A stretch of 64,000 bases of DNA from an uncultured Ectothiorhodospiraceae bacterium (GTDB lineage: Bacteria; Pseudomonadota; Gammaproteobacteria; UBA9214). Positions 10,325-58,340 of this stretch are shown piece after piece. Within the stretch, counting starts at the first letter, position 1. Every line of letters begins with the position of its first letter. The position numbers were made by a program, and so were the translations under genes. Location: NCBI GenBank assembly GCA_947258515.1, contig CAMYIO010000033.1, positions 609-64,608 on the forward strand. Reading direction: 5' to 3'. The notes beneath the pieces are model-generated. The model had not been told where the DNA came from, made no database searches, and was given only the letters and a program-made list of their open reading frames with translations.

Positions 10325-11350
10325 ATGCAAGCCATCCGCAAGCTAGTCCTGATTCTTTTGCTGATCAGCTGTAGCCGGGCGTGGAGCGGGTTTTACGAGG
10401 GTTTTGTCCTCTATGAGCAGGGCAATTATGAACTGGCGCTGCAGGAATTCAGACCACTGGCAGAAGGGGGTAACGCCTTCGCGCAATTATATCTTGGCGT
10501 TATGTATAACAAGGGTCACGGTGTAACGCAGAATTTCAATGAAGCAATAAAGTGGTGGCGCATGTCAGCCGAGCAGGGCGGGGCTGTTGCGCAGTACAAC
10601 CTGGGTGGTATGTATGAACGTGGCCAGGGTGTCCAGCGCAATGACAGTGAAGCCGTGAAGTGGTATCGCAAGGCAGCCAATTCCGGCTTGGCCGACGCGC
10701 AGTACAATATGGGTAACATGTACACAAAGGGCAAGGGAATCCCGCAGAACTACAAGGTGGCGGCTTACTGGTATCGCAAGGCCGCGGCGCAGGATGATGC
10801 CCGCGCACAGTTAAGCCTCGGCGTCATGTACGACGGTGGCCGGGGAGTGGAAAGAGATTACGCACAGGCCGCGGACTGGTATCGCAAGGCGGCGGAACAG
10901 GGTGACCCACGGGCGCAATACAACCTCGGCGGTCTCTATGCAAAGGGTCAGGGTGTAGAAAAAGATTACTCGCAGGCGGCGGCCTGGTATCGCAAGGCGG
11001 CGGAACAGGGCGACCCGCTTGCGCAATACAATCTCGGCATCCTCTACGATGAAGGCCAGGGTGTATTGCAGGACGACAAGCTGGCAGTAAAGTGGTACCA
11101 CAGGGCTGCCGAGCAGGGGTTTGCCGATGCGCAATACAATCTGGCCATCATGTACCACGAGGGTATGGGGATTCAGCAGGATGATGTTAAGGCCTACAAG
11201 TGGTTCAGTATTGTTGCTGCGGGAGGCAATCATGGTGCGCTCAGTGGGCGCGATACCATTGCCAAAACAATGACAGCCACTCAGATTGCAGACGCTCAAA
11301 GGCTTGCCCGGGAGTGGCTTAACGCACATAAAGTGCAGGCAGCCAAATAG
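10325..11350 (+). CDS. Sel1-like repeat (TPR-like) secreted protein
   Basis: Signal peptide plus about 8 tandem ~36-aa Sel1 repeats (AQYNLGxMYxxGxGVxxD...A.KWYRKAAEQG). Confidence 0.8.
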   Translation: MQAIRKLVLILLLISCSRAWSGFYEGFVLYEQGNYELALQEFRPLAEGGNAFAQLYLGVMYNKGHGVTQNFNEAIKWWRMSAEQGGAVAQYNLGGMYERGQGVQRNDSEAVKWYRKAANSGLADAQYNMGNMYTKGKGIPQNYKVAAYWYRKAAAQDDARAQLSLGVMYDGGRGVERDYAQAADWYRKAAEQGDPRAQYNLGGLYAKGQGVEKDYSQAAAWYRKAAEQGDPLAQYNLGILYDEGQGVLQDDKLAVKWYHRAAEQGFADAQYNLAIMYHEGMGIQQDDVKAYKWFSIVAAGGNHGALSGRDTIAKTMTATQIADAQRLAREWLNAHKVQAAK

Positions 11351-11497
11351 GTTCACTCTCAACAATAACTCATAAATTACTGTTATTTAATGCATATAAC
11401 ATGATTTACTCTCATGGTGAACATACCAGCAGGCGCAGAAACCTCAAACGCGGCAGATAAATCGAGCTATAATATTAGGAATTGATTATATTTGGCC

Positions 11498-13483
11498 TTG
11501 TTAATGTACAAGCATTTCTACCAACTCGTCACCAATCCCTTCAGGCTCGCGCCCGAGCCCGATTTCTGTTTTAGCCATTCAGGCTACGAGCGCGCCAGGG
11601 AATACCTTGAATACGCACTTGCCCAGGGGGAAGGCTTTGTCATGGTGACCGGTCGACCAGGCACCGGTAAAACGATGCTGGTTGAAACGTTTCTCAAGGC
11701 AATCAACCCCGGCGAGGTGGCTGCAAGACGCATTGCCGTATCCAGTTTCGGGGCAACTGATCTACTGCGTGCCGTGGCTTACGCCTACGGTATCGAGGCA
11801 GCCGGGATGGACAAGGGCACCATGCGCCACCGGATTCAGCAGTTCTTTGTACAACAGGAGCGCACCGGACGGCGCGTACTGCTGATAATTGATGAGGCAC
11901 AGGCGCTCAGTCATGCCGCCCTGGAAGAACTGAGGATACTGGCAGACCTGCAGACGCAATCGCGCCTGATGCTGCAACTCTTTCTGGTCGGGCAGGAGTC
12001 GTTGCAGGATTTGATGCAGACACCTGCCATGGAGCAATTCCAGCAACGCGTCATCGCAAATTATCAGCTGGTGCCGCTCAATCTGGAAGACACGCGCGCA
12101 TACATTGAACATCGCCTGCTGCAAGCCGGCTGGAAAGGCGATCCGGAATTCAGCAGTGCCGCGGTGTCAGGAATTTATCAACTCAGTAATGGCGTGCCAC
12201 GCCATATAAACAAGATATGTAACCGCTTGTTGCTCCTCGGTTTCGGCAAGGCCAGCCACATCTTTGACGAACAGGACATCGTGGAAATAGCCGCCGAGAT
12301 GCGTGAAGAGCGATTAACACCGCTGGTGCCAAAGCAGACAACGCACAACGACGTTGGCAATGTCACCAATCTGTCCGAAATTCGTGATAGCCAGATATTC
12401 GGGACCGATCTGGCCATTCGGGCAGACAAGATGGATGCCAGTGCGGTCGCCATCGCTGAAGGTTCACGGCTGGCTGTACGGAACAAGGAAGGGTTTATAA
12501 CGCGTCACCACACACACCCTGTGAGCCGCCATGAGCAGACCACCACACCCGATATAGAAACGGCCACACCGGCAAAGATTGCGCCCGAGCCGTTACATGC
12601 CGCCAACGAATCGTTCACTGCAACACGTGATCCTGAACACAGGGTAAAAGAGCGCCATACAGGTCACCATGGCTGGAAAAGAACGCTATCCGTCACAGCC
12701 GTGTTGCTGGTCCTGTTGGCGGTCAGTGTCGCAGTCGTACCCTCATTTCCGGGACACGAAGGTGTCAGGGACAGGCTGCTGTCATTTTTGGATCAATTTC
12801 AACGGCAAGACCCGCGGCTTGCCACCTTGCTGGAAGAAACAGCAGCAGCGGCACCCGGTGCTGGCAGTGAAATACGGCTACAGGCTGAAGATGAAAACGT
12901 GAGCACACCTGCGCAAGATGCTGGCCCGGCCGCACCGACCACAGCTACCGCCGGTGTTATCAACAGACATCCTGTGAAGACCGGGGGATCTGTCCCGGCG
13001 TCGTGGATTACTAAAATACGCGGGCAGGCCAATGTCATGGAGAGCAGCAATATCGAGGTGATACTTGCACAAGGCCGACAGGCACTGGATGACTACCGTC
13101 TGGTGACGCCCGAAGGCAATAATGCCTATGAATACCTGCTTGCAGCCCTGCAGCTGGATCCGGGAAACGAACCGGCCCAGGCGGGTATTGAGGAGATTGT
13201 TGATATTTATATTACACTCGCATCAAAGGCCGCAAACAACAACGAGCTCGAGAGAGCAGGTCGCTACCTTGATCGCGGGCTCGGCATACAACCGGATAAC
13301 CCTGAGTTACTGGTATTGAGAAACACCGTTAACGGCACAATGGAAGCTGCGCACGTAATGCAGGGGACAGCGGCACAGCTAACAGGCGATAGCACGACAT
13401 CGCGGTTACAGCCGGCCCTGATAAAACGGCAGGCCGCGGACAGAAGGCACGACCTCAGCACCACGGCTGGCTGGGATAGCTGA
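11498..13483 (+). CDS. ExeA/GspA/MshM-family AAA+ ATPase with transmembrane anchor and periplasmic TPR-like tail
   Basis: N-terminus MYKHFYQLVTNPFRLAPEPDFCFSHSGYERAREYL...VTGRPGTGKTML is the ExeA/AAA_16 signature. A transmembrane helix lies near residues 395-415, followed by TPR-like C-terminal repeats. An AT-rich promoter region lies upstream. Confidence 0.7.
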   Translation: MLMYKHFYQLVTNPFRLAPEPDFCFSHSGYERAREYLEYALAQGEGFVMVTGRPGTGKTMLVETFLKAINPGEVAARRIAVSSFGATDLLRAVAYAYGIEAAGMDKGTMRHRIQQFFVQQERTGRRVLLIIDEAQALSHAALEELRILADLQTQSRLMLQLFLVGQESLQDLMQTPAMEQFQQRVIANYQLVPLNLEDTRAYIEHRLLQAGWKGDPEFSSAAVSGIYQLSNGVPRHINKICNRLLLLGFGKASHIFDEQDIVEIAAEMREERLTPLVPKQTTHNDVGNVTNLSEIRDSQIFGTDLAIRADKMDASAVAIAEGSRLAVRNKEGFITRHHTHPVSRHEQTTTPDIETATPAKIAPEPLHAANESFTATRDPEHRVKERHTGHHGWKRTLSVTAVLLVLLAVSVAVVPSFPGHEGVRDRLLSFLDQFQRQDPRLATLLEETAAAAPGAGSEIRLQAEDENVSTPAQDAGPAAPTTATAGVINRHPVKTGGSVPASWITKIRGQANVMESSNIEVILAQGRQALDDYRLVTPEGNNAYEYLLAALQLDPGNEPAQAGIEEIVDIYITLASKAANNNELERAGRYLDRGLGIQPDNPELLVLRNTVNGTMEAAHVMQGTAAQLTGDSTTSRLQPALIKRQAADRRHDLSTTAGWDS

Positions 13484-13726: not shown

Positions 13727-16480
13727 GTGATGACAGCACTCACTGACAGTAACAAGGGCATAGCCGTCCTGAATGCACGACTCGGTCGACTGCTGGGTGT
13801 CATCATCCTGCTGTTCTCGCTGCTGGCGCTCAATTCGATCTATCTCGCAGCCATTTCACTGTTCGAGGCAATAAGTGGCGAAGTACAGCAGAACTATTTT
13901 TACCTGCTGATGTTCCTGCTGCACCTGGCGCTGGGCCTGTTGATCACCCTGCCGGTGATCGTGTTCGCACTGGCACACATGCGGCGCGCCTGGCGGCGAC
14001 CGAATCGTTATGCTGTCAGGGCAGGTATGGGGCTGTTCTTCACAGTACTGGTATTGCTGTTTTCCGGGCTGTTGCTGACGCGCTTCGAGTTCTTCGAGAT
14101 CAACGATCCACAGGTGCGACGCATTGGCTACTGGCTGCACGTCATCAGTCCGTTCGTCGTTATCTGGCTATTCGTGCTACACCGTCTTGCCGGCCCGCCG
14201 ATCCGCTGGAAGACCGGCTTGCGCTGGTTACTTGCCACCACGGGATTTGCAGCCGTGATGATCGTGCTGCAGACGCTCATACTGACCGACAGCAGTGCAG
14301 CGAAAACAGTGGCATTCCCGCCCTCGCTGGCAATCATGCAGGGCAGCGATTCGATACCGCCTGAACATCTGATGACGGATGAGGCCTGTGCACAGTGCCA
14401 CCCGGACATCGCAAAGACGCACGAACAGAGCATGCACCGCTTCAGCTCCTTCAATAACCCGGCCTACAAATTCAGCGTCGAGGAAACACGCAGGGTCGTG
14501 CTGCAGCGCGATGGCACTGTGCAGGCAGCGCGTTTTTGCGCCGCCTGCCACGATCAGGTCCCCCTGTTCAGCGGTCAGTTCGACGACCCGGACTACGATA
14601 CCGAAGGAAACCCGACGGCACAGGCCGGTATCACCTGCATGGTCTGTCACGCCATGACCCGGGTCAATGGTGTGCACGGTAATGGAGACTTCACCATTGC
14701 CGATCCGCCACGCTATCCCTTCGCATTCAGCGAGTCGCCACTGCTGCACAGTATCAACGCACAGCTGATCAAGGCGAAACCGGCATTCCACATGAAAACC
14801 CTGCTGAAACCGTTTCATCGCACCGCCGAATTCTGTTCTGTCTGCCACAAGGCAAATCTGCCGTCCGAGGTCAATCATTACCGCTGGCTGCGTGCCCAGG
14901 ACCACTATGACAGCTTCCTGCAGAGTGGTGTTTCCGGGCACCGGGTAGACAGTTTCTATTACCCGGCACAGGCCGTAGCACGCTGCAGTGATTGTCATAT
15001 GCCGTTGATGCCGTCAGACGACCCGGCGGCACGCGATTTCGATTACAGCAAGCAGCGCAGCGTGCACAATCACCAGTTCCCGGCGGCCAATACCGGTATC
15101 ACAAAGCTGCTGGATTTACCCGACTGGGTCATGCAGGCACACCGGCAGCGTCTCAGCGATGTCACGCGCGTCGATATCTTTGCCATCAAGGAAGACGGTC
15201 GCATCGATGGTGAACTGCATGCGCCGTTACGGCCGTCGCTACCGGAATTGCTGCCCGGGAAACGCTACCTGGTCGAGATCGTCGTCCGCACCACCGGGGT
15301 CGGACATCACCTGACGCAGGGCACCGCTGACTCCAATGAACTGTGGCTGGATGTGACTGTCAGTGCGGACGGCAAGCTCATCGGCCGTAGCGGCAGCCTG
15401 GATGCACAGGGGGCCGTCAACCCCTGGTCCTACTTCGTCAACAGCTATGTACTGGACAGGCAGGGCAGGCGCATTGACCGGCGCAACGGTCAGGATATCT
15501 TTGTCGCCCTCTACAACCACCAGATTCCGCCAGGCGCCGCGACCGTGGTGCACTACCTGCTGGAGGTACCGCAAGACGCACGGGGACCGGTTGCCATCGA
15601 GGCACAACTAAACTACCGTAAATTCGACGCAACCTACCTGCGTCACCTGCAGGGCGAACAATACAGCGGCAACCGGCTACCGGTCACGGTGATGGCATCT
15701 GACCGGCTGCAGTTGCCATTGCAGGGCCAGCATGCCTCACTCGACGAGCAACAAATCGTGGCAGTCAAGCCCGGCGAGCGCTGGAATGACTACGGCATCG
15801 GGCTACTTCGTGAAGGCAACAGCGGATCCAGCAAGGGCGAATTGCGCCAGGCGGAACAGGCCTTTCAACAGGTGGAGGCGCTGGGTGAAAACAGCGGCGC
15901 GCTGAACCTGGCGCGCGTCTACTTCAAGGAAGGACAGCTGGAACAGGCCGCAATGGCACTGCGGCGAGCCAGCGAGCAACAGGCACTGCCGTGGACAATC
16001 GCCTGGTACAGCGCCCTGATCGACCGCGAAAACGGCCACCTGGAGGCCGCGACACGCACCCTGGAATTCATTATCAACAATCAGTTCGCGGACGCACGCC
16101 AGCGCGGCTTCGACTTTTCCTACGACGTCAGGGTGCTGAATGAACTGGGCCGTACCCTGTATGAGCGCAGCCGGCAATTGCACGGTGCCGCGCAGCACGA
16201 ACTGCTGATACAGGCGCTGGGCTGGTTTGACAGGACCTTGCGAATAGATCCTGAGAACCTTGCCGCGCATTACAACCTCGCCCTGGTGCATGCGCAGCTC
16301 GGCAATACCGAAAAGTCAGGACAACATCGGGCATTGCATGAAAAATACCGTCCGGATGATCACGCCGTTGAACAGGCGGTCGCCCGACACCGCCGCGACA
16401 ATCCTGCCGCCGATCATGCCGCCGCCGCCACTGCCATCTACGACCTGGGCCGCGGGTTAAACGTAGAGACCGACCATTGA
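13727..16480 (+). CDS. polytopic membrane multiheme c-type cytochrome (5 CXXCH) with C-terminal TPR domain
   Basis: 4-5 N-terminal transmembrane helices, then CAQCH, CAACH, CMVCH, CSVCH and CSDCH heme motifs, then TPR repeats in the last ~250 aa. Confidence 0.75.
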   Translation: MMTALTDSNKGIAVLNARLGRLLGVIILLFSLLALNSIYLAAISLFEAISGEVQQNYFYLLMFLLHLALGLLITLPVIVFALAHMRRAWRRPNRYAVRAGMGLFFTVLVLLFSGLLLTRFEFFEINDPQVRRIGYWLHVISPFVVIWLFVLHRLAGPPIRWKTGLRWLLATTGFAAVMIVLQTLILTDSSAAKTVAFPPSLAIMQGSDSIPPEHLMTDEACAQCHPDIAKTHEQSMHRFSSFNNPAYKFSVEETRRVVLQRDGTVQAARFCAACHDQVPLFSGQFDDPDYDTEGNPTAQAGITCMVCHAMTRVNGVHGNGDFTIADPPRYPFAFSESPLLHSINAQLIKAKPAFHMKTLLKPFHRTAEFCSVCHKANLPSEVNHYRWLRAQDHYDSFLQSGVSGHRVDSFYYPAQAVARCSDCHMPLMPSDDPAARDFDYSKQRSVHNHQFPAANTGITKLLDLPDWVMQAHRQRLSDVTRVDIFAIKEDGRIDGELHAPLRPSLPELLPGKRYLVEIVVRTTGVGHHLTQGTADSNELWLDVTVSADGKLIGRSGSLDAQGAVNPWSYFVNSYVLDRQGRRIDRRNGQDIFVALYNHQIPPGAATVVHYLLEVPQDARGPVAIEAQLNYRKFDATYLRHLQGEQYSGNRLPVTVMASDRLQLPLQGQHASLDEQQIVAVKPGERWNDYGIGLLREGNSGSSKGELRQAEQAFQQVEALGENSGALNLARVYFKEGQLEQAAMALRRASEQQALPWTIAWYSALIDRENGHLEAATRTLEFIINNQFADARQRGFDFSYDVRVLNELGRTLYERSRQLHGAAQHELLIQALGWFDRTLRIDPENLAAHYNLALVHAQLGNTEKSGQHRALHEKYRPDDHAVEQAVARHRRDNPAADHAAAATAIYDLGRGLNVETDH

Positions 16481-16590
16481 ATTCGCGGATGCGGTCCGCT
16501 CCTACAGGTGGCTGTAATGGGTGTAGGAACGCTCCGCGAGCGCGATCGGGGTAACTGCTGGATTCGCGGATGCGATCCGCTCTTATAGAG
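16481..16590. repeat. REP-like palindromic element cluster (type B)
   Basis: attcgcggatgcggtccgctcctacag ... tgtaggaacgctccgcgagcgcgatc ... gattcgcggatgcgatccgctcttatagag. It is the reverse complement of the tgtaggagcggaccgcgtccgcgaa motif repeated at 58262. Confidence 0.5.
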
Positions 16591-16696: not shown

Positions 16697-18535
16697 ATGA
16701 CAAAGCAACACAATAATACTGACACCACACGGGCCGGTGAAGCCATCATTCGGCACTGGTTTCGCCGCTCACTCGCCATCATCCTGGGCGTCGGGATTAT
16801 CGCAGCCGGCATTGTCTGGTACCTGGGGCGCGACAGCGCACCCGACATAATTATCGAAGAGGCCGTCGTCAGCGGCCCGGTCGTTGCGGCACACACACCG
16901 CAGCAAACCCCTCCGGCGGTGATCTTCAGGGATATCACGGCAGCAGCCGGTATTGAGTTTGTCCATACAAACGGCGCCTACGGTGACAAGCTCATGCCGG
17001 AGACCATCGGCAGCGGTGCGGCATTCCTCGATTACGACAATGACACTGACCAGGACCTGTTACTGGTGAATTCCAGCTGGTTCCCCGGCCATGAACAGGA
17101 GAACCTGCCAACACTGGCACTGTACCGGAACGATGGCAGCGGCCGGTTCACCGACGTCACCCGGGAAACCGGACTGGCCATCAACTGCTACGGCATGGGC
17201 GTCGCGGCCGGTGATTATGACAACGACGGCTGGACAGATCTGTATATCACGGCACTGGGTGACAATTATCTGCTCAAAAACGGGCAGGGACACTTTACCG
17301 ATGTAACGACATCCACGGGCACCGCCGGCCAGACCTCCGACTGGAGTACAGCAGCAGCCTTTCTTGATATCGACAATGACGGTGACCTGGACCTGTTTGT
17401 CGGCAACTACGTGCAGTGGTCACGCCAGATTGATCTGGAGATCGACTTTCGCCTCACCGGCGTGGGACGTTCGATTGGTGCCCCCAACCATTTTTTCGGT
17501 ACTACCAACCGGCTGTACCGTAATGAGGGTGATGGCCGTTTCAGCGATGTATCCGCATCAGCGGGCATCATGATTACTGACCCCGTCACGCATGCACCGG
17601 CAGGCAAAACGCTGTCAGTAGCCCCGGTAGATTATGACCGCGATGGCCTTATGGACCTGTTCGTAGCCAATGACACCACCCGGAACTTTCTCTATCACAA
17701 CCTCGGCAAAGGACAATTCGAGGAGATCGGCGCCCTCGAGGGTATTGCCTATGACCGCAACGGCAAGGCCACCGGTGCCATGGGCATCGACGCCGCGTAT
17801 TTCCGCAATGATGAGGACCTCGGCATCGGTATTGGCAACTTCGCCAACGAAATGAGCTCACTGTATGTCACGGCCGGCGGACAGCCGCCCTTTGCTGACG
17901 AAGCCATCCTGGAGGGTTTTGGACCGGCGTCACGCCTGGCACTGACCTTTGGACTGTTCTTCTTTGACTATGACCTTGACGGCCGGCTCGACCTGTTTCA
18001 GGCAAACGGTCACCTCGAAACAGAGATCAACCTCATGCAGTCCAGCCAGACCTATGCACAAGCCGCGCAGTTGTTCTGGAATTGCGGGTCGGCCTGCCGC
18101 AGCCGCTTTGTTACCGTCACCGACAGTGGCGATTTTGCCAATCCCATGGTCGGCCGCGGCGCCGCCTACGCGGATATCGATAGTGACGGTGACCTCGACG
18201 TGGTGGTCACCCAGAACGGCCGCCGGGCCGTACTGTTCCGCAATGACCAGTCACTCGGGCATCATTGGCTGCGGGTCCGGCTGGTAGGAGATCGCGCCAA
18301 CCGAAACGCCATTGGTGCCACAGTGGAGATATCGGTCGACGGCGTTACCCAGCGGCGGATGGTGATGCCGACACGCAGCTACCTGTCCCAGTCCGAACTG
18401 CCCGTCACCTTTGGCCTGGGTACCCGCCACTCACTGGATGAACTGCACATCACCTGGCCTGACGGCCAGCGGCAAACCGTTCCCGTGCCCGCCGTCAATG
18501 TCATGATGACCATCACCCAAAGCGACCAGCCATAG
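16697..18535 (+). CDS. CRTAC1-family protein (FG-GAP repeats + ASPIC/UnbV domain)
   Basis: Repeated DxDxDGxxD calcium-binding FG-GAP motifs (DYDNDGWTDLYIT, DIDNDGDLDLFVGN, DYDRDGLMDLFVAND, DIDSDGDLDVVV) and a C-terminal ASPIC/UnbV-like segment. N-terminal transmembrane/signal anchor. Confidence 0.8.
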   Translation: MTKQHNNTDTTRAGEAIIRHWFRRSLAIILGVGIIAAGIVWYLGRDSAPDIIIEEAVVSGPVVAAHTPQQTPPAVIFRDITAAAGIEFVHTNGAYGDKLMPETIGSGAAFLDYDNDTDQDLLLVNSSWFPGHEQENLPTLALYRNDGSGRFTDVTRETGLAINCYGMGVAAGDYDNDGWTDLYITALGDNYLLKNGQGHFTDVTTSTGTAGQTSDWSTAAAFLDIDNDGDLDLFVGNYVQWSRQIDLEIDFRLTGVGRSIGAPNHFFGTTNRLYRNEGDGRFSDVSASAGIMITDPVTHAPAGKTLSVAPVDYDRDGLMDLFVANDTTRNFLYHNLGKGQFEEIGALEGIAYDRNGKATGAMGIDAAYFRNDEDLGIGIGNFANEMSSLYVTAGGQPPFADEAILEGFGPASRLALTFGLFFFDYDLDGRLDLFQANGHLETEINLMQSSQTYAQAAQLFWNCGSACRSRFVTVTDSGDFANPMVGRGAAYADIDSDGDLDVVVTQNGRRAVLFRNDQSLGHHWLRVRLVGDRANRNAIGATVEISVDGVTQRRMVMPTRSYLSQSELPVTFGLGTRHSLDELHITWPDGQRQTVPVPAVNVMMTITQSDQP

Positions 18536-18542
18536 GTACAAC

Positions 18543-20219
18543 ATGTCATTTCTCAACAGGCTTAAACTGCTCACATTTATCACCTTGCTGCTGGCCGGTC
18601 CACCTGCCATGGCGGGCGATGCCGCATCCGCGCTGCCCGTGTCGCTGGCAGGCAGCTTGCGGGCCATCCAGGAGGTCAGGCTGGATGACCTGGATACGCA
18701 GGCCCGGGACAGTATCCAGCTGGCACGGCGACAACTCAACGAGGTGCTGCAAGCGCAACCCGTTCAGCTTGACAAGCTGGCCGCCGCCTATGGTGAGCTG
18801 GGCGGACTCTACCAGGTCCACGCTGCCTTCCCGGCTGCTGAGGATTGTTACCACAATGCCGGGCAACTGGCACCCGATGAGTTCCGCTGGGCCTACTACG
18901 CAGCCTATCTCGCCGAGAAGGACGGGCGTACCAAACTGGCCCTGGACCGCTACCGGCATGCCCTGACACTGGACACCGCCTACAAGGCCCTTACGCTGCG
19001 GCTTGGAAACATCCTGCTGGATCTCAACGAACTGGAGCAGGCGCAGACAGCGTTTCAAGAGGTTGTAAGCGCCGTCGGACTGGAGGCGGCGTCTCTATAC
19101 GGTCTCGGGCAGATTGCCCTGCTGCAGCGCGATTATGACACGGCCATTGATGCCTTTACCCGTGCCCTGCAGTACGAACCGGCCGCATCCCGCATACATT
19201 ACCCACTGGCGCAGGCACTGCGTGCAACACAGCGTAACGACGAGGCAAAAGCCCAGCTGGCACTGCGCGGTGACCAGCCACCTTCCTTCAGAGACCCGCT
19301 GATCGAGGGCCTCGAAGCACTGAAGATCGGCTCACGTTTCCAATTCCTGCAGGCCATGAAGGCTATCAAGCGGCAGGACTATGCAGCAGCCAGCGAGGCC
19401 TTTGCAGAGGGGCTGTCCGGCGATCCGGACAATGTTCAGGCCCGCATCAGTTACGCACGCACGCTGTACCTCGCAGATAAAAAGAGCGGGGCCCGGCAGG
19501 CACTGGAAGCAGCACTTGCCATGCAGCCGGACAACTCGCTGGGCCTGTTCCTGCTGGGGATACTGGCTGAAGAGACGGGTGATGCCAGCAAGGCCGCCTC
19601 TTATTACCGTCTCGCGATTCGCTACACGCCTGACCATACCGGTGCGCATCAATACCTGGCCGATCAGTATTACCGTCAGGGCAACTACACAGCAGCTGCA
19701 GAACACTATGCCAGCAGTATCAGGGGAGAACCGAGCAATCTGGCGGCGACGATCCCCTACATAGGGACGCTGCTGCTAACCGATGCGCCTGCCGCCACCT
19801 TGATGACCGAGCTTGAAACCGCAATCGATCGTTTTCCTGAATATCCCGGCTTCAAGTCCCTGCAAATACTGCTGCTGGCCGGCAGCCGTAATCCAGAGAT
19901 TCATGCCCCGGAAACGGCGCTGAAAAACGCACAGCAACTGAACGATCAGTACCGAATACCACCGCACCAGGAATTGCTGGCGCTGGCCTACGCAGCGTCT
20001 GGCGACTACCCGCAAGCGGTATCCATGCAGGAAGAGCTGCTGTCCTATGCGCACCGCGCCATGCCGGGAGAGGCGGACCGCGTGGCACAAACCCTCGCTT
20101 ACTATCAGGACAAGACACTGCCCCCGCTGGATGAGCTTCTCAATTATGCTGCATTAGAGGCACAAAGATTCAATGCCACCGCGGCGTTTCGCGATTACCC
20201 GGCACCCAGACCCTATTGA
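18543..20219 (+). CDS. TPR-repeat secreted protein
   Basis: Signal peptide MSFLNRLKLLTFITLLLAGPPAMA followed by many TPR repeats. Sits directly after the CRTAC1 gene. Confidence 0.75.
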   Translation: MSFLNRLKLLTFITLLLAGPPAMAGDAASALPVSLAGSLRAIQEVRLDDLDTQARDSIQLARRQLNEVLQAQPVQLDKLAAAYGELGGLYQVHAAFPAAEDCYHNAGQLAPDEFRWAYYAAYLAEKDGRTKLALDRYRHALTLDTAYKALTLRLGNILLDLNELEQAQTAFQEVVSAVGLEAASLYGLGQIALLQRDYDTAIDAFTRALQYEPAASRIHYPLAQALRATQRNDEAKAQLALRGDQPPSFRDPLIEGLEALKIGSRFQFLQAMKAIKRQDYAAASEAFAEGLSGDPDNVQARISYARTLYLADKKSGARQALEAALAMQPDNSLGLFLLGILAEETGDASKAASYYRLAIRYTPDHTGAHQYLADQYYRQGNYTAAAEHYASSIRGEPSNLAATIPYIGTLLLTDAPAATLMTELETAIDRFPEYPGFKSLQILLLAGSRNPEIHAPETALKNAQQLNDQYRIPPHQELLALAYAASGDYPQAVSMQEELLSYAHRAMPGEADRVAQTLAYYQDKTLPPLDELLNYAALEAQRFNATAAFRDYPAPRPY

Positions 20220-22407: not shown

Positions 22408-23521
22408 TCAGAACCATATTGAAACGAAAAGCTGCGCCACGTCGGCACCGAATTTGTACAGCGGTTCATCTCCCGCCGGTGCGCCGCTGTCGCGCAGATC
22501 GCGAAAATCATGGTAGTTGAACCAGATGTGATCATAGGACAGGTTAATACTGCCACGGTCTATCCAGCGCCAGCCATTCTGTACGAAATCATAACTCAAC
22601 GAAAACCCGAGCGTGTTGCTGTCAAAAGAGCTGAGTTCCTTGTCGCGCGCGAGAAAGTTCTGTGCATCCCTGCGCGGGAACAGGTCACTGTAAAAGTCGG
22701 CTGAATTCTGCGTGTAATAGCGGTAGTGAGCTTCAAATAACCAGCCACCGCTCAGCGGGTGTATGTAGGCAAGCTTGACGTTATGCGCCCGGATTCCCCA
22801 GGTGTCATCAAAGATCCGGTACTCTGCATAGGTTGATGCACGATAAGGTAAATAATAAAGTCCGCGCACGGCAACTGCGTTGCTGGTGCGTGTATTCGGG
22901 TAGACCTCCGGCTGATAACTGTAACCCGGAGAACTCGCAGTATCGATGTAACGCACCGAACGGTAGGGATTATTCAAATATGCTGATCACCTGCGTGAGC
23001 CCGACTGTATAATTCTGCCGGTCCACATCTTCGGAGAAGGCAGGGTCGTTATTGTTGCCAACGACATCCCAGCCACGTGCATATCCCAGTGTCACGGTGG
23101 TCATGTTGCCAAACATGTCCATGCTGATACCAAAACTGGCGGTATTGGCCGAGTAATCACTCTCCTCACTGTTGGTATAGGAGACACTCATAATCGAATT
23201 GCCATGCAGGTAGTCTGCACCCAGCGAGTATTCAGTTCGCTCTTCCGTGTAGGGACTGGCCGTGGTGACGACATCAATGGATGCGCTGCTGATGGAATCC
23301 ACGTAGTAGTTACCGCTGAGCGCAAAATTCTGCCCGACGTTTTTCAGAACCAGCACCGATGGCCCGGTGATCTCGACCCCGCCGCCATCATAGGAGTGAT
23401 ACAGCGCATCGGCACGGTCATCCGGCAACACGCCGGCCACGGTCGGCAAGCCGCTGCACAGCAGGCACAGACCCGCGAGACAGGTTTTGCGGATACTAGT
23501 TACAGCCACAGCCCCCACCAT
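22408..23521 (-). pseudogene. DUF3570-like outer-membrane protein, split by a frameshift near 22970
   Basis: Two abutting 189-aa ORFs. The N-terminal half carries the signal peptide (LAGLCLLCSGLPTVAG). The C-terminal half ends ...FVSIWF, the terminal-Phe signature of outer-membrane barrels. Together they make ~378 aa, typical of DUF3570. It sits next to the DUF4266/TlpA partners. Confidence 0.5.
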
Positions 23522-23732
23522 TACCACCTTCAGCACCACGCGCCGCCTCGCGTGCCTGGTAGACGTGAATCATGTAGGAGGATGACACCGGGTTGCGTTC
23601 GAAACGCATGATTTCATCCGCAAGGTATTCACGCTCATAGGGCTTTACCCAGGGTTCGACCATACTGCAAGCCGGCAGGTACAACACACCCAGAACGAGA
23701 ATAACTGCTTTGCGGATAGTCACTGCCGTCAT
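23496..23732 (-). CDS. DUF4266-like small lipoprotein
   Basis: 78 aa, lipobox LPAC, C-terminal Gly-rich ...GGNGGGCGCN tail. Conserved neighbour of DUF3570 and TlpA genes. Confidence 0.55.
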   Translation of the reverse strand: MTAVTIRKAVILVLGVLYLPACSMVEPWVKPYEREYLADEIMRFERNPVSSSYMIHVYQAREAARGAEGGNGGGCGCN

Positions 23733-24241
23733 TCCCTGATCAGGTCACGAACCTGTTGCTGGTAGACAGTCTCAAGTCCGGGTTTATAGCCCTTGTGCAG
23801 GTAGCGCATATTGCCATCGCGATCCACCAGCACGGTGCTGGGCATGGCAACCACGTCATATTGCTTGCTGACGACGCTGTCGCTGTCAAATACCACGGGA
23901 AAACTCACCGGCAGTTCCTCCAGCAGTTTTTTCGCCTTGCTCGAATCAGCCTCGACGTTGACACCCAGCACGGTGAATCCCAGTGCACGGTACTTGTCAT
24001 GCAGTTCGCTGAGTACCGGCATCTCCTGGCGGCAGGGGCCGCACCACGAGGCCCAGAAATTGATCAGCACAACCTCGCCGCGGTATTCACTGAGCCTGAG
24101 ATTTTCACCCGTGTTGCTCTTCAGCGTAAAGTCCGGTGCACCCGACTGCTTCATGCCGGCATATACAGCGGATGTCGCCATGATCACCGCAGCGGCCATG
24201 CCGAGCCATGATTTCATGTAATGTGCTAACTTGTTTTCCAT
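23729..24241 (-). CDS. TlpA-family periplasmic thiol:disulfide oxidoreductase
   Basis: Signal peptide and thioredoxin fold with WASWCGPC active site. Stop/start overlap with the downstream lipoprotein gene. Confidence 0.8.
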   Translation of the reverse strand: MENKLAHYMKSWLGMAAAVIMATSAVYAGMKQSGAPDFTLKSNTGENLRLSEYRGEVVLINFWASWCGPCRQEMPVLSELHDKYRALGFTVLGVNVEADSSKAKKLLEELPVSFPVVFDSDSVVSKQYDVVAMPSTVLVDRDGNMRYLHKGYKPGLETVYQQQVRDLIRE

Positions 24242-24253
24242 AATCGACTCCTG

Positions 24254-24922
24254 TTAAAAGAAGAAACTGATACCGGCGGTACCTTCCAGGTTATGTGTTG
24301 TTTTATCCTTTCCGAGCAGGTCGGATTTGAAAATGTGGTCGCGGAAGTCTAGATGCAGCGCAACCCAGTCATTCACCAGGAACCGGTAGCCGGCGCCGAC
24401 GTTGACAGTGAAATGGCTGTCATCCGCAAACTCTGTATTTCCAACGCCGGCGATCAGGTACAGGGCACTGTTAAAGGCGTGACCCTTGCCGATAAATGCC
24501 TCACCCGGCAGGATGTTGTACCCCAGCGAGAGATTGTAGTAAGTCAGTTTCCGCTGACTGTCCGTCAGCACCCGGGCACCACCACTGAGCGTCTCGTAAC
24601 TGGTGTCGCCTGCCTTTGTCCGGCCGATAGCGGCCTCGGTAAAGAAGTCCTCGGTAATGTGGTAGGCGCCGCGCGCTCCATAGACCACGTTAGTGCCGAA
24701 GTCCTCGATACTCATGACACCGACAAAAGCACCGACCTCGAAGTCCTCACTGTCGATATCAGCTTCGGAAACCGTGCGTCTTTCAAGGTCCGGGCTTATC
24801 ACCGGCGTCGTGTCATCCTGTGGTGCATCATCAACCCGCACCCAGGAGCAACCCGGCAGCAGGCTCATGAAGGCCAGTGCAAGCATTGACCTCAGAAGAA
24901 AAATGCGAAACCTGCTTTCCAT
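24254..24922 (-). CDS. outer-membrane beta-barrel lipoprotein (OmpA/OmpW-like barrel)
   Basis: Lipobox LLPGCSW, amphipathic beta strands, C-terminal ...GISFFF. Confidence 0.6.
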   Translation of the reverse strand: MESRFRIFLLRSMLALAFMSLLPGCSWVRVDDAPQDDTTPVISPDLERRTVSEADIDSEDFEVGAFVGVMSIEDFGTNVVYGARGAYHITEDFFTEAAIGRTKAGDTSYETLSGGARVLTDSQRKLTYYNLSLGYNILPGEAFIGKGHAFNSALYLIAGVGNTEFADDSHFTVNVGAGYRFLVNDWVALHLDFRDHIFKSDLLGKDKTTHNLEGTAGISFFF

Positions 24923-25665
24923 TCGTTTATCTCCTGGTTGTCGTCCTTATCCTGAAAAATGACGCTGTTCCTGTATTCGGCACGCAGCAAGAATCGACGC
25001 GTCAGATAGCAGCGGATACCCACGCCGACACTGCCGATCTGCTCGGTACGATCCAGCTCATCGACCAGCGTAACGTTCGGGTCGGTATAGATAATCCCTG
25101 TCCCCAGAGAAAAGAAAGGCGACAGACGCCACTCCGGAAACGGATGCGCGAGCAGACTGACGCGACCAACAACCGAATCCGAATAATTCCCGAACACCTG
25201 TGATACAGACAATTCTGCAGAGAAATTCGCCGTCATGGCATATCCTGCATAAGCCGTGATCATATCCGCACCTTCAAAGTCTCCGGCCAGCACCCCGGCT
25301 TCCCAGCGTCTTTTCGAGAAATCCCCGATATTTGCCTCCGCGAAGCGGGTCTGGTCACCCGCGGGGGTTAACGTCTGTTCCATTTCCGCACGCCTGACCC
25401 AGCCTTCCTTGCCTTTCCCGGTACGTACCCTGAACCAGTCGGTACGCCGCTTCAGTACGCTAATGGTCTCGCCACGATCAACCACGTGGAATACCGGGTA
25501 ACCGCGGCCGGGGCCGGTATGCATTTCCAGGTATGGCGCAGCAACAACAACCTCGACCAGTTGTTCTTCAGAAAATGCCTGTCTGGCCAGCAGGGCCTGC
25601 AACAGCAGTACAATCACGAGCACGCGTAACTGCGAAAATCCCCGGGCAACAGTGCACGCGTGCAT
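24892..25665 (-). CDS. SH3-domain + outer-membrane beta-barrel protein
   Basis: Signal peptide, a bacterial SH3-like segment (YPVFHVVDRGETISVLKRRTDWFRVRTGKGKEGWV), then a barrel ending ...GFAFFF. Confidence 0.55.
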   Translation of the reverse strand: MHACTVARGFSQLRVLVIVLLLQALLARQAFSEEQLVEVVVAAPYLEMHTGPGRGYPVFHVVDRGETISVLKRRTDWFRVRTGKGKEGWVRRAEMEQTLTPAGDQTRFAEANIGDFSKRRWEAGVLAGDFEGADMITAYAGYAMTANFSAELSVSQVFGNYSDSVVGRVSLLAHPFPEWRLSPFFSLGTGIIYTDPNVTLVDELDRTEQIGSVGVGIRCYLTRRFLLRAEYRNSVIFQDKDDNQEINEWKAGFAFFF

Positions 25666-25675
25666 ACAGTCGCTA

Positions 25676-28252
25676 TCAGTTACCGGGTACTGCGAATGGA
25701 TCGTTGTAATACTGCGCACCGATATCCAGCCATTCCGAGACAAGTCTCAGTTCGGCTGCATCAAGACGATTCTCGTGACTGCCTCCACTGTTGAACAGAT
25801 CAAAAAAACGCCAGCTTGCACGTGCACCGGCGCTCGACATGGCAGGCGCAACCGGTACACGCACCTCGGTCGGCAATCCCGTCTCGGGATCGATCGGACC
25901 GGGTACCAGGATGTCCTGCAGGCCGTTATCACCGAGTTCCTCGGCGAAGTCAGCGAACAGTAGCTCCCGATAGGAGTGGAAATGCGCGGCCTGTTCTGCG
26001 GACACACCATCGGTCAGATCGAGCTGTGCATCCGGTACCCTGTCCATGTCGGCTGCATCGAGGCTGGCATGGCATTCTGTGCAGGTGTTTACGCCACGGT
26101 CACGATTCCACAGGGGGTGTATATGCTGCTCATAATTGATCACTGTCCTGCATTGACTGTCCCAGTCCCCCTGGCAGACGGATGAGGCCGGTGCAGCGGT
26201 TGACAGGTCCGCATACAGCAGGCTGGTTGACGCATCCTTGAGGCGAGCGGCAGCCATTTCGTCGGTCCAGAGGTCGTGATATATCAGGTCAGTCGAGGGT
26301 TGCAGGGAGAGGACATCAAACCGCGCCAGGGTTTCCGCCATGGTTTCTCCGTATATCGCGGGCAAGGCAGGGTCTGTATTCGGGAATTCCATAGCGGTTG
26401 CCGGGGCACCGGCATGCACAGACTGCGCCCCCTGCGGGTGACCGTGGGGGCTGCCACCGGCATGATTATGGCAACCGTTACAGTGGACTGTTTCCCCGGC
26501 ACGCACTTGCAACCAGTTCTGGTGACGGTCGCCGATGCGCCGTCCGTCCCTGTCCACCACGCTGATGGCCAGTGGCACATCGGCCGGTACCTTGACCCGC
26601 ACGGACCCGTCCGGCTGTACCGGTGTGTAGCCGATGATCTCGCGCATCAGTTGCTGGCTACTGCGTCCAAAGGCAGTAAACGGCAGTGTGGCCACGTCGT
26701 TGTCTGGCATGGCGACGGCCTTGACGATGCGCAGGAAACGGGCAGGGCGATCAGCGGCCAGGGACTCTTTCGGGTCGGCGAGCGTGGCGATATCCGGTGC
26801 CGCGGTATCCACACCGTCGATGTCATAGACACTGCGGATATTGAGTATGCCGACACCCTCGTCAATCCACTGCAGGTCCAGCTCGATACCGGGCTGCTTG
26901 TCGAAAATGATGGATGGCAGGGCGCGTGGGGCGGTTGCCACCACATTGGTATAGGTAATGCCTTCCTGCGGGACAACCACCGGTAACTGAGTATCGGTAG
27001 ACATGTCATAGAGAAATATTCCGTACAGTGGATCGGCCTCGAGTGCATCAGGACTTTCAATCCGGCCGGCGGTGCAGGGGACAATCACGGTATCCTCCAG
27101 CAAACGGCATTCGCTCCAGCTGACCAGTACACGATCCGTACCATCCAGCAGCGGCCAGGCGCTACGGAAACGGCCACCGGGAGAGACACTGTTGTCTGTA
27201 CGGACATCATTGATCAGCAGAGCGGACTGCGCCGGTCCGGACAGTATCCCCTGGTTGTCCATTGTAGGTTCGGTGTTATCGATATAGTTTTCGATATCCA
27301 GTGAAATCAGCTCGCCGCCACGGTAGGACCCTGTAAATGGCAGCAGCAGGGCGAGCAGCCGGCCATTTTCCAATTCCCGCGGTTGCAGGAAATGCACATC
27401 AGCGTTATTGGTGCCGGTGTCATGGCTATGGGAACCGTACAGAAGCTGCAAGCCGGTCCCGTCCGGATACATCTTGTAGAGGCTTATGGCATTACGACTA
27501 CCCATGTCATCCCAGCGGCTGAAAACCACTTCTCCGGAAGAAAGCACCATCGGATCAAGATCGTGGCTCTGGTTAAACGAGACCTGCCTGATATCACTAC
27601 CGTCTGCATTCATGACATGTAACACCATGGCATGTTCGTTGAGGTTTTCATCCAGCGCGGTAAATTGTGGTTTGCCTTCGTCCAGCAGCACGGCACGCGA
27701 TGTTCTTTGACGTGACGAGGAGAATATTATGCGGCCATCCGGCAGGTAGTGTGGCGCCACATCCTGCCCGGCGGCAGCGGTAATGTCCGACGGGATGACG
27801 CGCTGCAGCTCATCGGCCTCAATCAGGTATTCCCAGATATCCCACTTCGGCTGGTCAGCCGGGGCGAGGCCGGGTATCTCGGGCGCACGCATGGCGAAGA
27901 GCAGCCGCTCGCCGTCATAGGACACTTCAACATCCTTCACATCACCCAGGCCACCGGTGAAGGATGCGGTTACATTGCGTTGCCGTGCACCCGGAGAAGC
28001 CAGATCACGGTAAAACAGGTCACCACCGGCATTGAACGTTAATGCCTCGCGAATATCCGGCTGCGTCAACACATTATTCATATCAACGATCAGAGGACGA
28101 CGCACAAAGGCAATACCGAAATCCTCGACCAGTGGATCAGGGTCCTGACCATCACCCCCGCCACATGCCTGCAATGCAACAGACAACACGCAGGCAACGC
28201 ACATGGCTGCAATCTTCCTGACGCCCTGAAAACACGCGTTGATTAGAGTCAT
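25676..28252 (-). CDS. lipoprotein with PD40/TolB-like beta-propeller repeats and two c-type heme motifs
   Basis: Lipobox LQAC. Propeller-like repeats (DGSDIRQVSF..., LYKMYPDGTGLQ...) plus HCNGCH and CTECH CXXCH motifs. The ORF opens at a TTG (28342), but an internal ATG gives a proper lipoprotein signal. Confidence 0.6.
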   Translation of the reverse strand: MTLINACFQGVRKIAAMCVACVLSVALQACGGGDGQDPDPLVEDFGIAFVRRPLIVDMNNVLTQPDIREALTFNAGGDLFYRDLASPGARQRNVTASFTGGLGDVKDVEVSYDGERLLFAMRAPEIPGLAPADQPKWDIWEYLIEADELQRVIPSDITAAAGQDVAPHYLPDGRIIFSSSRQRTSRAVLLDEGKPQFTALDENLNEHAMVLHVMNADGSDIRQVSFNQSHDLDPMVLSSGEVVFSRWDDMGSRNAISLYKMYPDGTGLQLLYGSHSHDTGTNNADVHFLQPRELENGRLLALLLPFTGSYRGGELISLDIENYIDNTEPTMDNQGILSGPAQSALLINDVRTDNSVSPGGRFRSAWPLLDGTDRVLVSWSECRLLEDTVIVPCTAGRIESPDALEADPLYGIFLYDMSTDTQLPVVVPQEGITYTNVVATAPRALPSIIFDKQPGIELDLQWIDEGVGILNIRSVYDIDGVDTAAPDIATLADPKESLAADRPARFLRIVKAVAMPDNDVATLPFTAFGRSSQQLMREIIGYTPVQPDGSVRVKVPADVPLAISVVDRDGRRIGDRHQNWLQVRAGETVHCNGCHNHAGGSPHGHPQGAQSVHAGAPATAMEFPNTDPALPAIYGETMAETLARFDVLSLQPSTDLIYHDLWTDEMAAARLKDASTSLLYADLSTAAPASSVCQGDWDSQCRTVINYEQHIHPLWNRDRGVNTCTECHASLDAADMDRVPDAQLDLTDGVSAEQAAHFHSYRELLFADFAEELGDNGLQDILVPGPIDPETGLPTEVRVPVAPAMSSAGARASWRFFDLFNSGGSHENRLDAAELRLVSEWLDIGAQYYNDPFAVPGN

Positions 28253-28510
28253 AGTAGATCCTGATGCACATATATAAGTACGCACATCCGACGTCGTTTT
28301 CCTTTGGTGATCCCTGCATCCGTAATCACACACAAAAATCAATGTGATTCAGTTCCCGCCTGTTACATAACCCGTGTCGCAGTTGAACTATAGGACAGTC
28401 GAGGAATCCTGTTCCGCGAACAGAATCACAGAAAGCCACGCCTACAAACATCAGGATTGTCAGCCACGGAGATAACGACAATTAAAAACCAATGATTGCA
28501 GGAAGTGATT

Positions 28511-29704
28511 ATGCGTCTGTCAAAACAGTCTGATTACACAACGTCTAACCACCGGATCCGCAGGGCAATCATTGTGTGCATCCTGATGTTGTTCTCTACG
28601 ACTGCTTTTGCCGATGCACTCGAACGCCGTCAGGCGAAACGCCTGCATGACAGGCTGGCCGGTATTCCGCCAGAGGAATCGGTACTTGATGACATGGAAG
28701 CCGCGTTAATGGCCGGCAATGATCTGGATGCAGCCCTTATCGCAATGGACAACAAGGCCTTCTATAACATTACCCTGAAAAATTTTGCGGCCCCATGGAG
28801 CAACCGTGAAAGGACGCTGTTTGCACCGTTGAATGACTACACCGCCACCGTCATCGGCATGATTCGCGATAAAACACCCTTCAACGAACTGCTGTCAGCC
28901 AACCTGGTATATGTCGGCGATCCGGTATTGGGACTGCCTGACTACTCAATGACCGACAACGATCATTACCAGGCGCTGGAGGACCAGGGTATTGACCTGA
29001 AGACTCACCTGCAGGCCGTCACACAGACTTCTGTCACCGACCTGCCGGTAAATGCAACGGCGGGCGTGATGACGACGCGTGCTGCAGCCGAGGCTTTTTT
29101 CGTGGCGGGAACAAACCGCGCCATGTTTCGCTTCACCTTGCTGAATCATCTCTGCAACGACATGGAGCAGGTCAAGGACAGCAGTTATTCACCTGCCCGC
29201 ATTCGCCAGGATGTCTCACGCAGTCCCGGCGGTGACAGTCGCCTGTTCCTCAACTCCTGCATCGGTTGCCACAACGGCATGGACCCGATGGCTCAGGCGT
29301 TCGCCTACTACAACTTCGATGAAACCACTCAGCGTATCCAGTACACACCCGGTTCGGTACAGCCCAAATACCATATCAATGCCGACACCTTCAAGTACGG
29401 CTACATCACAGCGGATGACCGCTGGGACAATTACTGGCGCAGTGGTCAAAACGCATTGCTGGGCTGGGACAGCAACCTGACCGGTTCCGGTTCCGGTGCC
29501 AAATCAATGGGCAGAGAACTTGCCAACAGCGAGGCATTCGCCCGTTGCCAGGTCAAGAAGGCCTTCAAGACGGTTTGTTTGCGTGATCCGGGCAACGCGG
29601 CTGACCGTAACCAGGTGGACATCACCACTGCCAGTTTCAAGGCGGACAACTACAACATGAAGACAGCGTTTGCAGAAGTTGCCGTCTACTGCATGGGCGA
29701 ATAA
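28511..29704 (+). CDS. secreted protein with one CXXCH heme motif (PSCyt/DUF1588-like?)
   Basis: Signal peptide and CIGCHNGMDP motif. AGGAAG Shine-Dalgarno. Translationally coupled to the next gene (4-nt gap). Confidence 0.55.
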   Translation: MRLSKQSDYTTSNHRIRRAIIVCILMLFSTTAFADALERRQAKRLHDRLAGIPPEESVLDDMEAALMAGNDLDAALIAMDNKAFYNITLKNFAAPWSNRERTLFAPLNDYTATVIGMIRDKTPFNELLSANLVYVGDPVLGLPDYSMTDNDHYQALEDQGIDLKTHLQAVTQTSVTDLPVNATAGVMTTRAAAEAFFVAGTNRAMFRFTLLNHLCNDMEQVKDSSYSPARIRQDVSRSPGGDSRLFLNSCIGCHNGMDPMAQAFAYYNFDETTQRIQYTPGSVQPKYHINADTFKYGYITADDRWDNYWRSGQNALLGWDSNLTGSGSGAKSMGRELANSEAFARCQVKKAFKTVCLRDPGNAADRNQVDITTASFKADNYNMKTAFAEVAVYCMGE

Positions 29705-29707
29705 CCA

Positions 29708-32200: not shown

Positions 32201-32220
32201 AACACTACCGGGAGTATTGC

Positions 32221-33819: not shown

Positions 33820-33824
33820 GCATC

Positions 33825-58195: not shown

Positions 58196-58340
58196 AGTCG
58201 TGACCATAATGCAGGAGCAGATCGCGCTTGCGAAGCGCTCCTGCAAACGAGTCATGACCATATTGTAGGAGCGGACCGCGTCCGCGAAATATTCTGGACT
58301 GGAACAAATCGCGCTTGCGAAGCGATTCTGCAAACGAAGG
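58196..58340. repeat. REP-like palindromic element cluster (type B) in the fadI-fadJ spacer
   Basis: Three palindromes: gcaggagcagatcgcgcttgcgaagcgctcctgc, tgtaggagcggaccgcgtccgcgaa, and aatcgcgcttgcgaagcgatt. The unit is related to the one at 16481-16590. Confidence 0.5.

Follow-up and report, generated by a model that had tools for sequence, protein, structure and literature searches.

The stretch of DNA analysed here (the window) covers 64,000 nucleotides of contig CAMYIO010000033.1, assembly GCA_947258515.1, from an uncultured Ectothiorhodospiraceae bacterium, and on its plus strand it carries a gene for a membrane-bound multihaem cytochrome, followed by a gene for a beta-propeller protein and a third gene for a tetratricopeptide repeat (TPR) protein. 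The features of this operon are listed below by position in the window, with transmembrane helices abbreviated TM1 to TM5. The conservation counts refer to an alignment of 49 sequences reaching down to 27% identity.

13727-16480, plus strand: cytochrome gene, 917 amino acids from the GTG at 13727; the likely true start, the ATG at 13730, gives 916 amino acids
13775-14290, plus strand: N-terminal domain of five transmembrane helices, amino acids 17-188 (hydropathy, AlphaFold2)
13775-13876, plus strand: TM1, amino acids 17-50
13895-13990, plus strand: TM2, amino acids 57-88
13922-13924, plus strand: codon of His66 in TM2, about 9 residues from the periplasmic end; invariant (49/49), aligned with FdnI His57
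13976-13978, plus strand: codon of His84 at the cytoplasmic end of TM2, motif HMRRA; 47/49, invariant in alignment A3
14003-14005, plus strand: codon of Asn93 in the cytoplasmic loop before TM3, PNRYAVRAG; invariant in alignment A1
14006-14077, plus strand: TM3, amino acids 94-117
14108-14188, plus strand: TM4, amino acids 128-154 (AlphaFold2)
14138-14140, plus strand: codon of His138 in TM4, about 10 residues from the periplasmic end; invariant (49/49), aligned with FdnI His155
14180-14182, plus strand: codon of His152 at the cytoplasmic end of TM4, motif LHR; 47/49, aligned with FdnI His169
14207-14290, plus strand: TM5, amino acids 161-188 (AlphaFold2)
14354-15136, plus strand: pentahaem c domain, amino acids about 210-470 (motifs, conservation, match to 5ZE8)
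14387-14401, 14537-14551, 14636-14650, 14834-14848 and 14984-14998, plus strand: the five CXXCH motifs
15164-15715, plus strand: predicted beta-sandwich, amino acids 480-663, about 185 residues (AlphaFold2 secondary structure; invariant G526-H527)
15770-16423, plus strand: C-terminal TPR-like helical repeat, amino acids 682-899, about 220 residues, followed by a conserved tail
16482-16501 and 16563-16582, plus strand, and 58269-58288, minus strand: repetitive extragenic palindrome (REP)-like repeat TTCGCGGATGCGRTCCGCTC, for which 0.02 copies are expected by chance
16697-18535, plus strand: partner gene, 612 amino acids, FG-GAP beta-propeller with C-terminal UnbV_ASPIC domain, CRTAC1 family
18543-20219, plus strand: third operon gene, TPR protein of 558 amino acids with an apparent N-terminal signal sequence (by eye)

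The cytochrome is encoded by one unbroken open reading frame (ORF); the last in-frame stop before it has its final letter at 13633. In public gene calls the ATG at 13730 is taken as the start, and the exact 916-amino-acid protein is present in NCBI, where near-identical cluster members carry the name 'multiheme c-type cytochrome'. The five haem motifs, CAQCH (amino acid 221), CAACH (271), CMVCH (304), CSVCH (370) and CSDCH (420), take up all 10 Cys residues of the protein, and none of 20,000 shuffles of its sequence contained more than one CXXCH. AlphaFold2 with the 49-sequence alignment gave a single confident assembly for the full-length protein (predicted local distance difference test, pLDDT, 92.2; predicted template modelling score, pTM, 0.89). 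A first-pass annotation, made from the letters and translations of this locus, had described one polypeptide with a membrane domain of '4-5' helices, five CXXCH haems and TPR repeats over the last 250 or so residues. This layout is borne out by the uninterrupted ORF, the motifs, the AlphaFold2 model and the Pfam matches, with the difference that the helices number five by both hydropathy and AlphaFold2 and that the TPR array is shorter, about 220 residues. As its refutation it had named a membrane region that proves to be a mis-joined upstream ORF, and we found instead that the fusion is kept across phyla down to 27% identity. That two genes were joined by a frameshift or by misassembly is thus as good as impossible: the reading frame is continuous, and the same domain order recurs in independent assemblies by the hundred, among them complete chromosomes and those of the cultured genera Rhodopirellula and Stieleria, a conservation by which this explanation is already refuted. 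One relative that seemed to have no haem motifs (P0189) proved on inspection to be a gene call full of frameshifts, an error of that record alone, and no other support for an artefact was found. The gene is real.

Among 5.8 billion proteins searched there were more than 100 full-length relatives of 900-970 amino acids with 65-97% identity, named 'TPR repeat protein' or 'multiheme c-type cytochrome' in their sources. When amino acids 1-690 were scanned with HMMER against 1.84 billion cluster representatives, 2740 proteins were obtained at E<=1e-3 and 558 at E<=1e-30, and with one genome counted per species at least 588 species genomes carry a relative. The hosts include members of the Gammaproteobacteria, Planctomycetota, Verrucomicrobiota, Acidobacteriota, Thermoanaerobaculia, Latescibacterota and Betaproteobacteria, the cultured planctomycetes among them being Rhodopirellula europaea, R. 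maiorica and Stieleria spp. The same domain order, for which a search in other genomes had been recommended, is present in every full-length relative examined, in several phyla; five haem motifs follow 4-5 hydrophobic helices in most full-length representatives down to 30% identity, the first motif sometimes taking the form CX3-4CH. The architecture had been called unusual, and indeed it is uncharacterised, but it is widespread and not rare. Six shorter members of 710-755 amino acids (P0213, P0217, P0218, P0237, P0250 and P0255) are without the five-helix domain, their length being enough for the haem domain, the beta-sandwich and the TPR arm, and because of them the periplasmic module can be taken to exist without the b-type anchor. 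The contigs of four loci that carry the operon (L005, L026, L039 and L061) are labelled as 'Halobacteria archaeon' or 'Akkermansia muciniphila' metagenome-assembled genomes, probably by errors of binning or labelling.

Five hydrophobic segments were recognized in the membrane domain by hydropathy. Arg and Lys are enriched at the N-terminus, in the loop between TM2 and TM3 (RRAWRRPNR) and in the loop between TM4 and TM5, while the loop between TM1 and TM2 and the stretch after TM5 are acidic, and from this distribution the positive-inside rule predicts a cytoplasmic N-terminus and periplasmic C-terminal domains, in agreement with the periplasmic haem domain for which a topology prediction had been proposed as a check. 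TM2 and TM4 each contain two His at matching depths, those of TM4 being spaced as H-x13-H; His84 and His152 lie 2-4 residues from the cytoplasmic helix ends and are flanked by Arg (HMRR and LHR). Asn93, in the loop before TM3, is also the consensus residue in alignments A2 and A3, and together with Ala96 it aligns with the 'HNPIAQ' motif before TM3 of HyaC (N-x-x-A/Q in HyaC and FdnI). It is a candidate for a residue of a quinone site.

Amino acids 1-215 matched no Pfam family even at E<=10, and the curated threshold of PF01292 (Ni_hydr_CYTB) was not reached. After a Pfam scan of 35 diverse transmembrane domains of the family, DUF4405 and Ni_hydr_CYTB were the most frequent matches, with 7 members each (best E-values 0.0014 and 0.0062, respectively), every other family matching at most 3 members; both are families that we take to belong to the clan of two-haem cytochromes. 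The profile of the transmembrane domain was then compared by hhalign with the single sequences of FdnI, FdoI and HyaC from E. coli, giving co-linear alignments of 105-129 columns against 7-34 columns for reversed, shuffled and unrelated membrane-protein controls. Against a joint profile of FdnI, FdoI and HyaC, the alignment extended over TM1 to TM4 (135 columns, E 2.2e-4) and placed His66, His138 and His152 on FdnI His57, His155 and His169. In the structure of formate dehydrogenase-N (Fdn-N) that Jormakka and colleagues described in 2002, His57/His155 and His18/His169 are reportedly the two pairs of haem ligands, and an Asn-Gly-Gln loop is said to line the menaquinone site together with His169. 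Foldseek with a model of the transmembrane domain alone (pLDDT 87) gave nothing significant (best E 0.2), the leading matches being mostly bis-haem b proteins (NOX5, FdnI, mitochondrial cytochrome b, STEAP2, cytochrome b561 and Dcytb), with FdnI at a probability of 0.98 and a TM-score of 0.48 that is not significant by E-value; a PDB sequence search with the transmembrane profile likewise gave nothing significant. TM5 is poorly conserved and resembles a plain connector to the periplasm. As both ends of FdnI are cytoplasmic, such a connector helix would be needed for export of a C-terminal fusion. Taken from sequence, TM1 to TM4 are probably a remote di-haem cytochrome b of the FdnI/HyaC type, and the protein would then probably hold seven haems, two b and five c. 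The five c motifs that had been noted thus stand, the membrane bundle before them probably being a haem protein in its own right.

The periplasmic haem domain is mostly helical in the AlphaFold2 model, to about amino acid 470. All five CXXCH motifs are invariant across the 49 sequences, as are His237, His355, His449 and His527, whereas Met425 is conserved in 96% and His364 in 38 of the 49 (78%). The four invariant His, the last of which lies in the beta-sandwich, are candidate distal haem ligands, and since they are four in number outside the motifs, at least 4 of the 5 c haems are probably bis-His coordinated and hence likely of low potential. The only solved relative by sequence is the pentahaem cytochrome c552 of Thermochromatium tepidum (PDB 5ZE8), which matched at amino acids 205-317 with the single sequence (E 5.8e-5) and more strongly with the family profile (E 2.5e-10), the match covering in all amino acids 205-326 with haems 1-3. 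Pfam gave weak matches to Cytochrome_C554 and an MtrC-type domain at amino acids 217-317 and none on amino acids 432-688. The beta-sandwich, which the first-pass annotation had passed over together with the partner gene described below, matched nothing in Pfam, NCBIfam or PDB sequence searches; cytochromes with five haems and a beta-sandwich have been described in the literature as a family without known function, and the same layout is predicted here. TPR matches of Pfam lie at amino acids 704-753 and 830-864. All 50 PDB matches listed by Foldseek for the full-length model are TPR proteins, such as MamA and the TPR domains of OGT, a result that supports the TPR arm and is uninformative on the haem and transmembrane parts.

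The product of the partner gene matches FG-GAP_3 (3e-36) and UnbV_ASPIC (1.5e-19) of Pfam, and its closest solved relative is human CRTAC1 (PDB 9ETN; E 4.3e-15, amino acids 254-597). In 60 of 62 orthologues a conserved N-terminal motif, DDAxIGRAFRxS, on the cytoplasmic side, is followed by a single transmembrane helix, which by analogy with the FdnH helix against FdnI suggests a membrane-embedded contact with the cytochrome. It contains neither CXXCH nor a conserved Cys, its conserved residues being mainly Asp, Asn and Gly of calcium-binding loops together with His90 and His439. A total of 82 loci were surveyed, 72 of them informative for adjacency, and in about 70 of these, across phyla, a propeller gene adjoins the cytochrome gene. 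Apart from upstream or absent exceptions, it follows directly 3' of the cytochrome wherever the sequence of the 82 loci suffices, with 47-70% identity and mostly with overlapping junctions (-4 or -8); in L016 and L023 the FG-GAP/UnbV genes stand directly upstream instead. Two long contigs of relatives keep the order cytochrome, FG-GAP/UnbV protein and TPR protein, with the genes touching or overlapping and with different flanks, while the third gene is conserved only in a gammaproteobacterial subgroup. At 16-19 other loci (L012, 3442-7302; L016, 4664-7879; L063, L066, L067 and others) a protein of about 1000-1290 amino acids that combines TPR, FG-GAP and UnbV_ASPIC is encoded directly upstream of the cytochrome, so that TPR and propeller modules recur around it in varied arrangements. 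In the window, cytochrome and partner are separated by a spacer of 216 nucleotides that contains two of the three copies of TTCGCGGATGCGRTCCGCTC (16482-16582), and since the genes of most relatives overlap at this junction, it has the look of an insertion of repeats. Promoter-like sites did not exceed chance expectation, and Rfam gave no matches in the window.

The nearest analogues are E. coli FdnGHI and CbcL of Geobacter sulfurreducens. With FdnI, FdoI and HyaC (PF01292), the di-haem b anchors of formate dehydrogenase-N and hydrogenase-1, the cytochrome shares the four-helix core and the N-x-x-A before TM3, and as in Fdn-N the partner is a single-helix subunit, FdnH there and the propeller here; it differs in its fifth helix, in having His84 at the end of TM2 in place of His18 in TM1, and in its fused periplasmic redox partner with c haems instead of an Fe-S subunit. 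CbcL joins a HydC/FdnI-like di-haem b domain and a periplasmic multihaem c domain in one polypeptide, for which electron exchange with the quinone pool has been proposed (PMC9129911, PMC6295460). The first-pass annotation had noted that multihaem cytochromes are usually soluble or held by a single helix; polytopic b/c fusions such as CbcL are, however, known already. By described architecture (CbcL/MtrH/MtoC family), the likeness is the presence of b and c domains in a single chain, but CbcL has nine N-terminal c haems and six C-terminal transmembrane helices, against the reversed order and five helices found here (PMC6295460); it also is without beta-sandwich, TPR or FG-GAP partner and serves extracellular electron transfer in anaerobes, while the c domain here is pentahaem and c552-like. 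Five CXXCH followed by a beta-sandwich or Ig-like domain are shared with c552 (5ZE8) and the PHC group (Geobacter ExtKL, GSU2801, PtdA), which are soluble or periplasmic proteins that carry neither a membrane b domain nor TPR and are likewise of no known function. The NapC/NirT/NrfH/CymA proteins are also membrane-bound multihaem c cytochromes between the quinone pool and periplasmic partners, but in them a single N-terminal helix is combined with four haems, and the quinol site is on a c haem at the periplasmic face; with five transmembrane helices, five c haems and no Pfam match to Cytochrom_NNT, the cytochrome is not of the NapC/NrfH type. Human CRTAC1 resembles the partner in its FG-GAP propeller and ASPIC/UnbV domain, but it is a secreted matrix protein, while the partner is anchored in the membrane and genetically tied to the cytochrome. 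We know of no redox link for CRTAC1.

On this evidence we propose, with a probability of about 0.6, that the fused bc-type module acts as a wire between the quinone pool and a complex in the periplasm that includes the propeller. The protein would be an inner-membrane bc-type cytochrome of five fused modules, namely the b bundle, TM5, the pentahaem c domain, the beta-sandwich and the TPR arm. An outer haem b would be ligated by His66 and His138 on the periplasmic side, and an inner haem b by His84 and His152 on the cytoplasmic side, near the probable quinone site at the Asn93 loop; these two haems would span the membrane from the cytoplasmic-side quinone site to the periplasmic face, TM5 would take the chain across to the periplasm, and the five c haems would lengthen the wire. 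The beta-sandwich and the TPR arm may hold the propeller protein, giving a complex laid out like Fdn-N, with b-type anchor, single-helix partner and periplasmic head, in which the chain of seven haems would pass electrons between the quinone pool and a ligand of the head. The first-pass annotation had suggested a coupling of quinol or membrane redox to a protein-interaction platform, and this fits the four conserved transmembrane His, the remote homology to FdnI/HyaC and the near-obligatory partner. As for direction, flow from the periplasm to the quinone, as in Fdn-N and hydrogenase-1, appears likelier than oxidation of quinol, as proposed for CbcL, because bis-His c haems are usually of low potential, as c552 too is described to be, and because ubiquinone-using aerobes are numerous among the hosts. 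Going beyond this wiring, the system may represent a new and widespread class of quinone-linked periplasmic oxidoreductases in aerobic and facultative Planctomycetota, Verrucomicrobiota, Acidobacteriota and Gammaproteobacteria, in which the calcium-binding FG-GAP/UnbV propeller would be the substrate-binding or catalytic head and the b2c5 chain its route to the quinone pool; we regard this as a tentative suggestion, for which the odds are clearly below even.

Several observations weigh against the proposed wiring. The homology to FdnI and HyaC is weak, with an hhalign probability of 45%, the transmembrane domain of the window protein stays below the threshold of every Pfam and NCBIfam model, and FdnI His18, the ligand in TM1, is without a counterpart, so that His84 on the same membrane face must be assumed to substitute for it. 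The similarity to c552 is limited to haems 1-3, amino acids 321-690 matching nothing solved in the PDB sequence search, and no redox cofactor motif is visible in the partner protein. Two loci, L026 and L057, carry no FG-GAP gene next to the cytochrome, and ORFs of 596 amino acids nearby, considered as divergent propellers, were identified as LepA and a CPSase-like protein, leaving both as true exceptions. The direction of flow is drawn only from the general rule that bis-His haems are of low potential.

Among other explanations, the one to be taken most seriously, though unlikely, is that the pentahaem domain itself is catalytic, in the manner of NrfA, an HAO-type enzyme or a sulfur-compound reductase, and is fed with quinol through the b haems in an outward flow, the propeller and TPR parts scaffolding the complex or binding substrate. 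Only four invariant non-motif His are available for five c haems and His364 is variable, so that one haem may have an open or unusual sixth ligand; the weak Pfam matches to Cytochrome_C554 and MtrC-type domains point the same way, as do the placing of PtdA, a homologue of c552, in the same cluster of orthologous groups (COG) as NrfA and the suggestion in the literature of a role of c552 in sulfur metabolism. However, neither CXXCK nor any other known catalytic haem motif is present, the highly conserved Met425 could be the fifth distal ligand, the neighbouring genes give no hint of a substrate, and transfer from quinol to low-potential bis-His haems would run uphill in ubiquinone-using aerobes. 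Doubtful to a greater degree is a membrane domain that serves as a mere anchor or assembly platform, its His serving to bind metal or to pack the helices, in a protein that would hold five haems only. All curated family models stayed below threshold, Foldseek gave no significant match, and members without the transmembrane domain exist, in agreement with a periplasmic module that can stand alone; but the four intrahelical His are conserved across phyla at paired depths, three of them align with FdnI His57, His155 and His169, and Arg stands beside the inner His as expected for propionate binding. Such conservation would be needless in a plain anchor, and TM5, the helix most like a connector, is the poorly conserved one.

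A redox sensor or a cytochrome-assembly factor, with the TPR arm binding clients as in CcmI and NrfG, is very improbable. The TPR domains of CcmI and NrfG do chaperone apocytochromes, and the product of the third gene matches TPR_CcmH_CycH with 59 bits, but TPR models cross-match broadly and that gene is confined to one subgroup; neither the protein nor the operon has an output domain (kinase, GGDEF or MCP), and five invariant haem sites together with a quartet of transmembrane His go far beyond the needs of a chaperone. The wiring of the quinone pool to a propeller-containing complex remains the reading that we favour.

The genes around the operon were also inspected. Upstream on the plus strand (10325-13483) lie genes for a Sel1 protein of seven repeats and for a 663-amino-acid protein with a long C-terminal extension, whose N-terminus matches the model of the XrtA/PEP-CTERM-associated ATPase with 282.6 bits, below the cutoff of 324.5; neither gene is conserved beside the cytochrome in relatives. 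Downstream on the minus strand (25676-28342) is a gene for an 888-amino-acid protein with the middle domain of hydrazine synthase alpha (HZS-alpha; PF18582) and two CXXCH (amino acids 621 and 754). The same gene is found at a similar distance in relative L002, not in L001, and the HZS-alpha operon was rejected as a part of the system on its absence from L001 and most other loci. It is followed downstream, also on the minus strand (22408-25743), by genes for an SH3/outer-membrane-protein (OMP)-barrel protein, an OMP barrel, a thioredoxin/AhpC-like protein and DUF3570, the last being split into overlapping ORFs (22970-23539 and 22408-22977) where L002 has an intact gene of 391 amino acids, which suggests a frameshift or a sequencing error. 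The plus strand from 28496 to 34853 carries putative periplasmic redox genes, for a 402-amino-acid ORF with one CXXCH, an 830-amino-acid Laminin_G_3 protein with two CXXCH, a 567-amino-acid ORF without Pfam match and an ApbE flavin transferase; from 35629 to 40320, also on the plus strand, there are three consecutive TPR-rich ORFs of 628, 254 and 683 amino acids, the last with a YfiO/BamD-like match.

Work on membrane cytochromes of the fused bc type has up to now dealt mainly with metal-reducing anaerobes (CbcL, CbcBA). What is new here is a single chain that combines a b domain like that of FdnI with a pentahaem wire resembling c552 and with a TPR arm, and no description of the module of cytochrome and propeller was found in the searchable literature. 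Because relatives occur in at least 588 species of several phyla, many of them ordinary aerobic heterotrophs, a common quinone-linked route of periplasmic redox has probably been overlooked. The closest published observation is that of 2025 in which non-anammox homologues of HZS-alpha in other taxa were described as flanked by CRTAC1-family FG-GAP genes, and a class of redox propellers, if true, would fit this arrangement of haem proteins (PMC12758564). The cultured hosts Rhodopirellula and Stieleria put genetics and biochemistry within reach. We know of no biochemical role for the ASPIC/UnbV propeller family, whether bacterial or human, and its near-obligatory pairing with the cytochrome provides a functional lead; if the propeller is indeed the head of such an oxidoreductase, this would be the first mechanistic context, a redox one, for the ASPIC/UnbV/CRTAC1 family.

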